57,758 nt of DNA from Candidatus Berkelbacteria bacterium. Its GTDB lineage: Bacteria > Patescibacteriota > UBA1384 > XYA2-FULL-43-10 > CAINNR01. Below, piece after piece: positions 10,991 to 57,575 of the stretch; position 1 is the stretch's first letter; each line of letters starts with the position of its first letter. The DNA lies in contig JBAXAF010000005.1 of the NCBI GenBank assembly GCA_037142675.1, positions 1 to 57,758 of the forward strand. The letters run 5' to 3'. The position numbers and the translations under genes are program-made. The notes below the pieces were generated by a model. It did no database searches. It saw only the letters and a program-made list of their open reading frames with translations, and was not told the DNA's origin.

Positions 10991-11606
10991 AAATCACGGC
11001 CGATTTATCATTTCGGCTGATCTGACAGCCAAGTATAATTATCCAGATCAAGAAAGCTAATATCCACCCTCGCTCAGAGATATTAATAACCTCTGATTTG
11101 TTAATATTTGCCCACAAACTAACAAGGCCGAAGATTAACGAAGCGGAAAATAAAATACTTGCTGTAAGTAGCACTCTTTGAATTTTCCCTTTCAGCAAGT
11201 ATAAAATTGCAAATATTTGAGAAACTAAAAATGTAATTACCAAACCAGTAATAAAATTATTGTGAACCACATCTCTTGTAGTTCGAACACCTTGCCATGG
11301 ATCCATTGGTGTAAACCAATTCATATAAATTAACCCCGAAAAACAAAGAAAAATAAAAACACCTGACAATTTAGCAAAAACATCTTTCTTCAAAATAAAG
11401 GCAAATGAGAATAACATAACTAAAATCGCCGATATTGAATAGCAAGCGTTTATTGCTATGGCGTGAGCCTCACCTCTAGCGTTAAGCTCACTAACTGTAT
11501 TCCAAAAATGACTGTAACCAGGCTTCAGCTCGGCGAACACAATAATCGTTAATAAATATGTCGTGGAGCCCAGGATCCCTGCCATACCTAACATCTTATT
11601 TTTCAT
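10989..11606 (-). CDS. polytopic membrane protein (DUF998-like, 205 aa)
   Basis: Six or so hydrophobic helices. 4-nt ATGA overlap with the htpX stop. Confidence 0.6.
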   Translation of the reverse strand: MKNKMLGMAGILGSTTYLLTIIVFAELKPGYSHFWNTVSELNARGEAHAIAINACYSISAILVMLFSFAFILKKDVFAKLSGVFIFLCFSGLIYMNWFTPMDPWQGVRTTRDVVHNNFITGLVITFLVSQIFAILYLLKGKIQRVLLTASILFSASLIFGLVSLWANINKSEVINISERGWILAFLIWIIILGCQISRNDKSAVI

Positions 11607-53569: not shown

Positions 53570-53598
53570 AAAACAAAAAAACAGAAGTTTATTTCTGT
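53570..53598 (-). terminator. bidirectional terminator ending the tRNA-Leu(UAA) unit
   Basis: ACAGAA-GTTTAT-TTCTGT hairpin with flanking A-runs and T-runs. Confidence 0.6.
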
Positions 53599-53604
53599 TT
53601 TTTC

Positions 53605-53763
53605 TGGTGCAACGCTTAGCGTTGCGATTACCAAGCTTAGCTTGGTGCCCGAGATCGGAGTCCTCACCCGTTCGCAGGCTCACTCATAGAAACCCACGGT
53701 TTCTATTCCAAGATATAATAATTCACTCACCAACTTTCGCCGACAATAAATGTCAGCGCAAGT
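53605..53763 (-). other. structured tRNA-Leu(UAA) trailer with a duplicated tRNA 3' end and an ACCA-ended minihelix
   Basis: 53642-53662 exactly repeats the tRNA 3' end at 53763-53783. Hairpin ACCAAGC-TAA-GCTTGGT (53630-53646). Minihelix GCAACGC-TAA-GCGTTGC plus ACCA (53625-53605). Further hairpins lie in between. Confidence 0.7.
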
Positions 53764-53851
53764 TGGTGCCCGAGATCGGAGTCGAACCGATACGGTTTTT
53801 AAGGCCAAAGGATTTTAAGTCCTTCGTGTCTACCAATTCCACCACTCGGGC
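53764..53851 (-). tRNA. tRNA-Leu (anticodon UAA), CCA encoded
   Basis: Cloverleaf by hand: acceptor GCCCGAG/CTCGGGC, anticodon stem AAGGA/TCCTT with loop CTTAAAA, long variable arm, T arm ATCGG-TTCGACT-CCGAT, A73-CCA. Confidence 0.9.
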
Positions 53852-57208: not shown

Positions 57209-57285
57209 TGGTGGGCGCTGGGGGATTCGAACCCGCGACCTACTCAGTGTAAATGAGTTGCTCTAACCAGCTGAGCTAAGCGCCC
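57209..57285 (-). tRNA. tRNA-Val (anticodon UAC), CCA encoded
   Basis: Acceptor GGGCGCT/AGCGCCC, anticodon stem ACTCA/TGAGT with loop TTTACAC, T loop TTCGAAT (one C-C mismatch in the T stem). Confidence 0.85.
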
Positions 57286-57300
57286 GATATATGAATTTAA

Positions 57301-57488
57301 TGGTGCGACGCTAAGCGTCGCTTTCACCAAGTTAAGCTTGGTGGGCAGAACAGGAATTGGTCACGGATATCCCGATGCTTCGGGATTCCGCTACCCCGCC
57401 TCGGCGCCAGTCGCGCCTCCGGCTTTCAAGCCCTTTTACTTTTTAATACACCATGCCGCATAGCTAAACAAAGTTTAGCGAAGTGGCA
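57301..57488 (-). other. structured tRNA-Leu(GAG) trailer with a duplicated tRNA 3' end and an ACCA-ended minihelix
   Basis: 57339-57355 exactly repeats the tRNA 3' end at 57489-57505. Hairpin CACCAAG-CTTAA-CTTGGTG (57325-57343). Minihelix GCGACGC-TTA-GCGTCGC plus ACCA (57321-57301). GC-rich hairpins lie at about 57360-57440. Confidence 0.7.
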
Positions 57489-57575
57489 TGGTGGGCAGAA
57501 CAGGACTTGAACCTGCACGGCCTTGCGGCCACAGCCACCTCAAGGCTGCGTGTATACCAATTTCACCACCTGCCC
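57489..57575 (-). tRNA. tRNA-Leu (anticodon GAG), CCA encoded
   Basis: Acceptor GGGCAGG/TCTGCCC, anticodon stem CAGCC/GGCTG with loop TTGAGGT, long variable arm GGCCGCAAGGCC, T arm GCAGG-TTCAAGT-CCTGT. Confidence 0.9.

Follow-up and report, generated by a model that had tools for sequence, protein, structure and literature searches.

In the 57,758-nt stretch of DNA analysed here (the window; contig JBAXAF010000005.1 of a Candidatus Berkelbacteria bacterium), two tRNA-Leu genes on the minus strand, tRNA-Leu(UAA) and tRNA-Leu(GAG), are each followed by a long structured trailer. These trailers look like undescribed miniature mobile DNA that homes to the CCA ends of tRNA genes rather than like a tRNA-processing device, and a full-text literature search returned no description of these element families of the candidate phyla radiation (CPR). 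Each trailer consists of two unrelated elements stacked one behind the other, a composition overlooked in an earlier reading of the window's letters (the original prediction). The inner one, here called an echo element, measures about 120–150 nt and ends in a copy of the 3' end of the tRNA gene that it follows, and the outer one is a 38-nt double hairpin, here called the RCCA module (R, purine). The combined blocks are precisely absent from the same tRNA genes in relatives, the two families occur independently of one another, the module obeys a legible target rule, and both families conserve structure through paired changes. The trailers are probably lineage-specific composites of two gene-less hairpin-forming mobile insertions, which would move as folded single strands with the help of an enzyme supplied in trans.

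Organization of the two tRNA-Leu trailers

The source genome (G000) comprises 0.99 Mb in 37 contigs with 42% G+C. Every part that the original prediction had listed behind tRNA-Leu(UAA) was found on the minus strand where it had been placed, and the claim that the same order of parts recurs behind tRNA-Leu(GAG) was borne out: in both trailers a hairpin is followed by a structured body and by a copy of the tRNA 3' end, after which comes a 45-nt double hairpin whose last bases are ACCA. The features, all on the minus strand, are as follows.

53764–53851, minus: tRNA-Leu(UAA), CCA encoded, the last 20 nt being the duplicated target (ARAGORN; Rfam RF00005, 59.7 bits)
53728–53763, minus: echo element 1, first hairpin, whose closing TGGTG (53732–53728) pairs with the tRNA CACCA (sequence and fold)
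53663–53727, minus: echo element 1, body, containing the 9-bp hairpin ATAGAAACC-GTG-GGTTTCTAT at 53706–53686
53643–53662, minus: copy of the tRNA-Leu(UAA) 3' end from T-loop to CCA, GACTCCGATCTCGGGCACCA, 20 nt exact (exact-match search)
53605–53642, minus: 38-nt RCCA module of locus 1, AGC-TAA-GCTTGGT, spacer AATC, GCAACGC-TAA-GCGTTGC, ACCA (63.7 bits)
53570–53604, minus: original intrinsic terminator of tRNA-Leu(UAA), which lies directly 3' of the tRNA ACCA in G002, G004, G011 and the run X5 strain
57489–57575, minus: tRNA-Leu(GAG), CCA encoded (ARAGORN, Rfam)
57449–57488, minus: echo element 2, first hairpin, whose closing TGGTG pairs with the tRNA CACCA; an orthologous hairpin is present in G009
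57359–57427, minus: echo element 2, 69-nt "type B" scaffold of three helices (model R2, 98.1 bits)
57339–57358, minus: copy of the tRNA-Leu(GAG) 3' end, 20 nt with one mismatch, of which 17 nt are exact (TCCTGTTCTGCCCACCA, 57355–57339)
57301–57338, minus: 38-nt RCCA module of locus 2, AGCTTAACTTGGTG, AAA, GCGACGC-TTA-GCGTCGC, ACCA (model R1, 69 bits)
57209–57300, minus: original 15-nt spacer and tRNA-Val(UAC); a 12-nt spacer joins tRNA-Leu(GAG) to tRNA-Val in G002 and the run X7 strain

In the first trailer the CACCA–TGGTG pairing spans 53768–53728, hairpin 1 of the module (ACCAAGC-TAA-GCTTGGT) occupies 53646–53630, the minihelix (GCAACGC-TAA-GCGTTGC) 53625–53609 and the terminal ACCA 53608–53605; in the second, the minihelix with its ACCA (GCGACGC-TTA-GCGTCGC-ACCA) occupies 57321–57301. 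The tRNA-end copy at the first locus had been described as an exact 21-nt repeat; the copy is real, but its length is 20 nt, the 21st base being the A that comes after CCA at both sites. The A-T to G-C exchange reported between the two minihelices proved to be a genuine compensatory change. Both trailers fold far more stably than shuffled sequence (z = -7.1 at locus 1 and -6.6 at locus 2), and the 21-nt minihelix pattern has 0.00 chance occurrences expected in the window. The inserts, of 159 and 188 nt, contain no open reading frame (ORF), and an Rfam search of both loci returned no family besides tRNA even at E ≤ 1. A segmental duplication, which had been named as a trivial alternative, is excluded by the flanks, the scaffolds and the tRNA copies, all of which differ between the loci.

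A second tRNA-Leu(UAA) gene lies on a 2-kb contig (C35:1039–1123), where it lacks an encoded CCA and adjoins a second tRNA-Pro(UGG). Because nearly all other tRNAs of the genome encode CCA, this gene may be foreign or mis-binned.

The trailers are insertions absent from relatives

The comparison of tRNA-Leu loci suggested by the original prediction yielded the empty sites that it had called for, with both blocks precisely missing. Behind tRNA-Leu(UAA) in G002, which belongs to the same genus, and in G004 and G011, which belong to other genera, the ACCA is followed by the same terminator and downstream gene, and in a lake-metagenome contig of run X5, from a strain about 92% identical, position 53603 is joined to 53764. 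These sites identify the 159-nt block, from just past the ACCA to the last ACCA, as derived in this lineage. Behind tRNA-Leu(GAG) a 12-nt spacer leads to tRNA-Val in G002, a contig of run X7 joins 57291 to 57488 so that the 188-nt block is missing, and the site in G010 is empty as well. Behind tRNA-Leu(CAA), where the module stands without an echo element, the read-derived contigs were highly fragmented. The precise absence of both blocks from relatives marks them as insertions and not as the original trailers of these genes. The empty sites are seamless, with RCCA on both sides, which fits an IS200/IS605-like insertion and a duplication of 4–7 nt equally.

Intermediate states were also found. 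At tRNA-Leu(GAG), G009 and G011 have a type B echo element but no module, and in G004, of the same genus as G011, the echo element is missing from this site. Such echo-only states, together with the differing sets of genomes in which the two families occur, indicate that the families come and go separately.

The 38-nt module and its target rule

A covariance model of the 45-nt double hairpin (R1, spanning 53649–53605 at locus 1 and 57345–57301 at locus 2) was used for the genome-wide search that the original prediction had proposed. Six gap-free canonical copies were found in the source genome and matches in 24 of 61 relatives, with bit scores near the maximum across families. G026 has 15 matches, and G001 and G002, both of the source genus, have none. 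In an even sample of the phylum the module is scattered, being present in 11 of 301 genomes, and copies per genome range from 6 to 17. The proposed covariation test was equally positive: 5 of the 14 module pairs have changed on both sides among the six genomic copies.

The module is closely tied to tRNA genes without depending on an echo element. Five of the 49 tRNAs of the source genome bear it, and three of the six copies stand directly behind a tRNA, namely Leu(CAA), Met and Ser(CGA), without insert or duplicated tail. Among 66 collected hits, 32 begin exactly at the 3' end of a tRNA (Ala, Val, Leu, Met, Ile, Ser, Tyr, Pro or Arg), 10 come after the terminal copy of an echo element, and the remainder are found behind tRNA-like or tmRNA-like ends or in other contexts. 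Modules occur in tandem at three loci (L005, L030 and L060).

The general layout reads RCCA, 9–10 nt, TGGY, a 4-nt spacer, a 7-bp hairpin and RCCA; the target duplicated by the module amounts to 4–7 nt only. In 51 of 55 ungapped modules there is agreement between the tRNA discriminator, the base pairing with it in hairpin 1 and the N of the terminal NCCA (39 of A type and 12 of G type). The tRNA-Ser copy, whose host has a G discriminator, illustrates this: hairpin 1 (GCCA...TGGC) and the tail (GCCA) have switched together. Identity leftward of NCCA exceeds that of permutations (p < 2e-4). Modules of YCCA type were sought with the same strict pattern in 61 genomes and none was found, vs 25 of R type; YCCA ends account for 17% of the tRNAs of the source genome.

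Relatives of the module are also found away from tRNA genes, antisense to mRNA in the rplF-rplR-rpsE spacers of the source genome and within another repeat family of G116. These relatives show that CCA...TGG is intrinsic to the family and that the copies at tRNA ends are a specialised branch of it. The spacer copies (C20:11176–11215 and 11546–11588, L043) are module-like double hairpins of the form ATGGCGC-TTA-GCGCCAT, AATT, CCACGC-TAA-GCGTGG that occupy the rplF-rplR and rplR-rpsE spacers; the second hairpin overlaps a Shine-Dalgarno sequence, and one copy is kept in G003, of the same genus. A different setting is seen at C2:33709–33850 (L039), where a G-type module, one of the six genomic copies, is preceded by an irregular hairpin (GGACTG...CAGTCC-GCCA; about 85 nt) that contains TTCGAA motifs. 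This hairpin has no Rfam match, and no tRNA of the genome has its end. We also considered whether the apex GCTNAGC might be an avoided restriction-type site and rejected the idea, since 185 occurrences were found vs about 162 expected, showing no avoidance.

Echo elements carry a copy of the end of the tRNA that they follow

Eight tRNAs of the source genome (Tyr, Gln twice, Glu, Leu twice, Val and Arg) are followed by a structured insert of 101–231 nt whose last part repeats the 3' end of the tRNA in question. This copy is exact over 17–21 nt in seven of the eight, and over 10 nt only at tRNA-Gln(UUG). Two types of scaffold are visible, that of tRNA-Leu(GAG), designated type B and modelled as R2, and the different body behind tRNA-Leu(UAA), which shares pieces of 86–92% identity with the 3' half of the tRNA-Gln(UUG) element on contig C7 and with repeats in genome G010.

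The type B scaffold was found in 19 of 61 relatives, a set unlike that of the module. Its fold is strongly conserved: among 36 copies, both partners have changed in 16 of 23 pairs, and pairing is kept in 97.6% of cells. It is hosted by at least nine tRNA types (Tyr, Arg, Leu, Ser, Pro, Met, Gly, Val and Trp) with 14 anticodons, glycine tRNAs with U73 included. For 29 copies an upstream tRNA is present, and in 19 of these the scaffold is directly followed by an exact 20-nt copy of that tRNA, always starting from one fixed T-loop position; a further three have a shorter exact copy of 12–17 nt. Immediately 5' of the scaffold lie bases that can pair with the beginning of the copy (GGGATTC before the scaffold and GAATCCC after it, for example), so that a single hairpin is formed by inverted stretch, scaffold and copy, with a stem that reproduces the tRNA-gene end.

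A version with cargo is present in G003 (contig C26; L169:410–1590), where tRNA-Ile is followed by the 3' half of another tRNA, about 950 nt, a type B scaffold and a copy of the half-tRNA end. The cargo has one CxxC-rich ORF, without a Pfam match. Some type B scaffold copies have no tRNA within 6–20 kb upstream. At tRNA-Leu(GAG) of G009 (contig C4, L202) the terminal copy is followed by a second occurrence of the first echo-element hairpin, which points to elements that are tandem or have been partly deleted, like those of the RtT array of Escherichia coli described below.

Search for a mobilising enzyme

REP-associated tyrosine transposases (RAYT; HUH Y1 family) were sought as candidate movers. 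In G042 (C62:1570–3540, L088) a RAYT-like gene and a decayed copy of it are flanked by arrays of two-hairpin units of about 57 nt, GTAG...CTAC, with the sequence GTAG-ACCAAGC-TTCA-GCTTG...CACGC-TAAA-GCGTG-AGCTAC, the hairpin cores of which resemble the module. The gene is intact and encodes 224 aa, scoring 71.9 bits against NCBIfam REP_Tyr_transpos, which is under the 80-bit cut-off. A full module, which does not adjoin a tRNA, lies 200 nt downstream of the gene, and the locus as a whole resembles a classical REP/RAYT arrangement within a CPR genome. Around 20 other RAYT-like genes in the relatives no module-like hairpins were found nearby. As a general mover RAYT/Y1 was rejected, the co-occurrence being weak (18 of 24 module-positive vs 20 of 37 module-negative genomes) and failing in the genomes richest in modules.

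The window holds a further palindromic family. At about 28110–28020 on the minus strand lies a repeat of about 65 nt, with 20 copies in the genome, 19 of them on other contigs. It reads GTCA-TCCCCGA-loop-TCGGGGA-TCCA, a 10-nt spacer and ATTCCCGCC-TTCG-CGGGAATGAC, two inverted hairpins resembling a REPIN doublet, and shows compensatory changes between copies in a source genome that has no Y1/RAYT gene. In G116 an RCCA module sits in the loop of this repeat.

Favoured reading and its difficulties

Both families share one layout: target, X, inverted target, structured loop, target. The target measures 4–7 nt in the module and 20 nt in the echo element, and X ranges from 9 nt to the cargo of about 950 nt. 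Integration of a single-stranded circle by way of a folded hairpin imitating a double-stranded target leaves the same layout behind, as with integron attC sites and with CTX phage and XerCD. On the strength of this likeness we favour a donor in the form of a folded single strand and joining by an enzyme provided in trans. The inner echo element consists of a hairpin that is optional, a stretch able to pair with the tRNA end, the folded scaffold and the 20-nt tRNA copy from T-loop to CCA. The outer module stands exactly after a purine-CCA and ends in the same purine-CCA, its internal TGGY pairing with that RCCA. In both elements, recognition of the tRNA-gene end may rest on base pairing or on mimicry, with the joining left to the enzyme acting in trans. 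An excised circle or a nicked dumbbell would be expected to carry a junction of minihelix-ACCA to AGCTAAGC. Among the origins that the original prediction had offered, small non-autonomous elements inserting after CCA are the best supported, given the precise empty sites and the presence of the module behind many tRNA types.

Several observations weigh against this reading. No mobilising enzyme was identified. Y1/RAYT transposases were not found in G000, G116 (17 copies, 100% complete), G131 or G027–G030, and G026, with its 15 module matches, has no homologue of the RAYT-like protein P0001 and one weak Y1_Tnp match. The mechanism leaves unexplained how the inverted and direct target copies are re-specified for each new tRNA. 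Modules are retained at the same tRNA in G028 and G041, of one genus, so that some copies have long been inherited vertically. The exactness of the terminal copies in seven of the eight echo elements of the source genome could reflect selection and not youth. Finally, a sense-strand G.U pair is kept in 35 of 36 scaffold copies, a feature compatible alike with folding of RNA and with folding of top-strand DNA.

Alternative explanations

It might be that the hairpins are REP/REPIN-like palindromes moved by a RAYT, or the product of IS200/IS605 "peel and paste", with TGGY acting as a guide that pairs with the target and with the element's own terminal RCCA. A single-guide rule of this kind would account for the three-way agreement of N and for the seamless empty sites, and the G042 gene with its decayed copy, its flanking arrays of module-like hairpins and the full module 200 nt away is what one would expect of it. 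We nevertheless regard it as unlikely: the other 20 RAYT-like genes have no such hairpins, a Y1 gene is wanting in G116, G131 and G000 and reduced to the one weak match in G026, the module carries no GTAG tag, and hairpin 1 without the guide pairs retains 3 bp only. The elements could instead be decayed or miniature integrative islands, in which a tyrosine or serine integrase crossed over in the T-loop, leaving the copy as a displaced attR, and the remnants were mobilised in trans. The repeat from a fixed T-loop position to CCA resembles T-loop-type att sites, a cargo-bearing version is known from G003, some scaffold copies, those lacking a tRNA within 6–20 kb upstream, could be the right ends of large islands, and displaced tRNA-Leu halves surround tRNA-Leu(CAG) in the source genome. 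Although the T-loop-to-CCA repeat and the 1-kb cargo version thus agree with the integrative remnants of the original prediction, no integrase was found in or next to the elements, and the cargo ORF has no Pfam match. One scaffold family serves at least nine tRNA types, unlike a classical tRNA-specific integrase, compensatory pair changes in the scaffold are a single-strand signature and not that of protein-binding arms, and the 38-nt module duplicates 4–7 nt only, so that we consider islands quite unlikely.

A functional role in the transcript would make the trailers processing signals for RNase P, RNase Z or the CCA enzyme, switches that mask CCA, or decoys of the acceptor end, directed for instance at toxins modifying the 3' ends of tRNAs. 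The minihelix is indeed a 7-bp helix with the cognate discriminator and CCA, its outer pairs match the tRNA acceptor end above chance, hairpin 1 masks the tRNA CCA, the trailers fold strongly, and the scaffold retains its sense-strand G.U pair. The trailers are absent, however, at the same tRNAs in genomes of the same genus (no module in G001 or G002), only the five tRNAs noted above carry a module, and the modules behind tRNA-Ala (L007 and L010) have no G3:U70 identity pair; an acceptor mimic would be expected to carry the cognate identity pairs and to be kept at orthologous loci. Mismatches in the module stems, read on the sense strand, are A.C in 28 cases vs G.T in 11, the opposite of what RNA constraint predicts and hence no support for a constraint on sense RNA. 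Relatives of the module are found antisense to mRNA in the ribosomal-protein spacers and also inside other repeats, and the orthologous copies of G028 and G041 have decayed at much the same rate as the spacer on either side. A search of RNA runs found none that contains this stretch. The acceptor mimics put forward in the original prediction are therefore unsupported, by the missing orthologous modules, the tRNA-Ala modules and the antisense relatives alike, and functional trailers in general seem improbable. A SINE-like (short interspersed element) retro-insertion, in which a reverse transcriptase, using the CCA end as priming site or template, turned a tRNA-tailed transcript back into DNA, would agree with copies that always end at the mature CCA end and with a 20-nt distance from CCA to T-loop that recalls the logic of retroviral primer-binding sites. 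The copy length is fixed, unlike variable target duplications, there is no poly-A or other mark of retroposition, and the inverted target copy would be left unexplained; this origin is highly improbable.

Displaced tRNA-Leu pieces were observed at C11:1–450 (L040), where tRNA-Leu(CAG) is bracketed by diverged fragments, a 5' D-arm upstream and a half running from the anticodon to CCA about 60 nt downstream. The arrangement gives the impression of an older tRNA gene whose anticodon region was split by the arrival of a complete tRNA gene.

Significance

Should it prove mobile, the 38-nt module would rank with the smallest known units of site-specific insertion, and its target rule, TGGY pairing with RCCA, can be read from its sequence. 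The echo elements park one folded scaffold behind almost any tRNA while the gene is rebuilt, and they offer a testable origin for the RtT repeats of E. coli, unexplained for more than 40 years. For annotation, these inserts generate tRNA-like fragments and strong hairpins that can mislead tRNA annotation, operon prediction and the assembly of CPR genomes. An enzyme that mobilises them could yield a compact programmable integration system.

Comparison with known systems

Genomic islands that target tRNA genes share with the echo elements the direct repeat from T-loop to CCA and the intact tRNA gene; those using the T-loop sublocation leave tRNA gene fragments (e.g. PMC9897764). The CPR inserts differ in being 100–230 nt long without an integrase, in the use of at least nine tRNA types by one element family, and in having an extra inverted copy and a folded scaffold. 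With REP/REPIN and IS200/IS605 elements they share short multi-copy palindromes, compensatory changes and seamless insertion beside a short specific sequence; they differ in the strict tie to RCCA, in the lack of a cognate RAYT in the richest genomes, and in the module alignment, where no GTAG/CGTC tag is present, GTAG being confined to the arrays of G042:C62.

The likeness to attC sites and CTX attP(+) lies in the order of core, cargo, inverted core, structured loop and core, in the retention of structure over sequence, in an asymmetric unpaired spacer between paired boxes and in tandem arrays. The module alignment lacks the GTTRRRY core, however, no integron integrase accompanies the CPR elements, the core is the end of whichever tRNA has been hit (4–7 or 20 nt), there is little or no cargo, and the module, at 29–38 nt, is far below the size of any attC.

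The closest described system is that of the 178-bp repeats distal to tyrT and tyrV in E. coli (RtT RNA, rttR; RF00391). As read in NC_000913, the RtT units stand in tandem behind the tRNA gene on the same strand; each has a stretch, GGGGAAGGAT, complementary to the 3' strand of the T-stem and acceptor of the tRNA, then a GC-rich structured body, and closes with 19 nt, AATCCTTCCCCCACCACCA, that are identical to the 3' end of tRNA-Tyr with its CCA. A search with the RF00391 model (cmscan, E ≤ 1) of L001, L002 and eight other loci returned tRNA and chance hits only, so that the window elements are analogues of RtT and not members of that family. They differ from it in their many tRNA types, their other scaffolds, their presence or absence among close relatives, and the separate 38-nt RCCA module that accompanies them and is absent in E. 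coli. The plan itself is the same in the window, where each unit behind a tRNA ends in a copy of its 3' end (20 nt, and 17 nt exact, respectively). Both the function and the origin of RtT are still unexplained (bioRxiv 10.1101/2024.07.17.603846). As a tentative idea, more doubtful than the composite insertions themselves, CPR bacteria might host protein-less "self-addressed" elements, down to 38 nt in size, which would carry no information beyond a folded single-strand hairpin with a stem reproducing the tRNA-gene end; the address, RCCA or the entire segment from T-loop to CCA, would be found through pairing or mimicry, and the joining would fall to a host recombinase or repair enzyme of the housekeeping kind; the RtT repeats of E. 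coli would then be a fossil of the same process.

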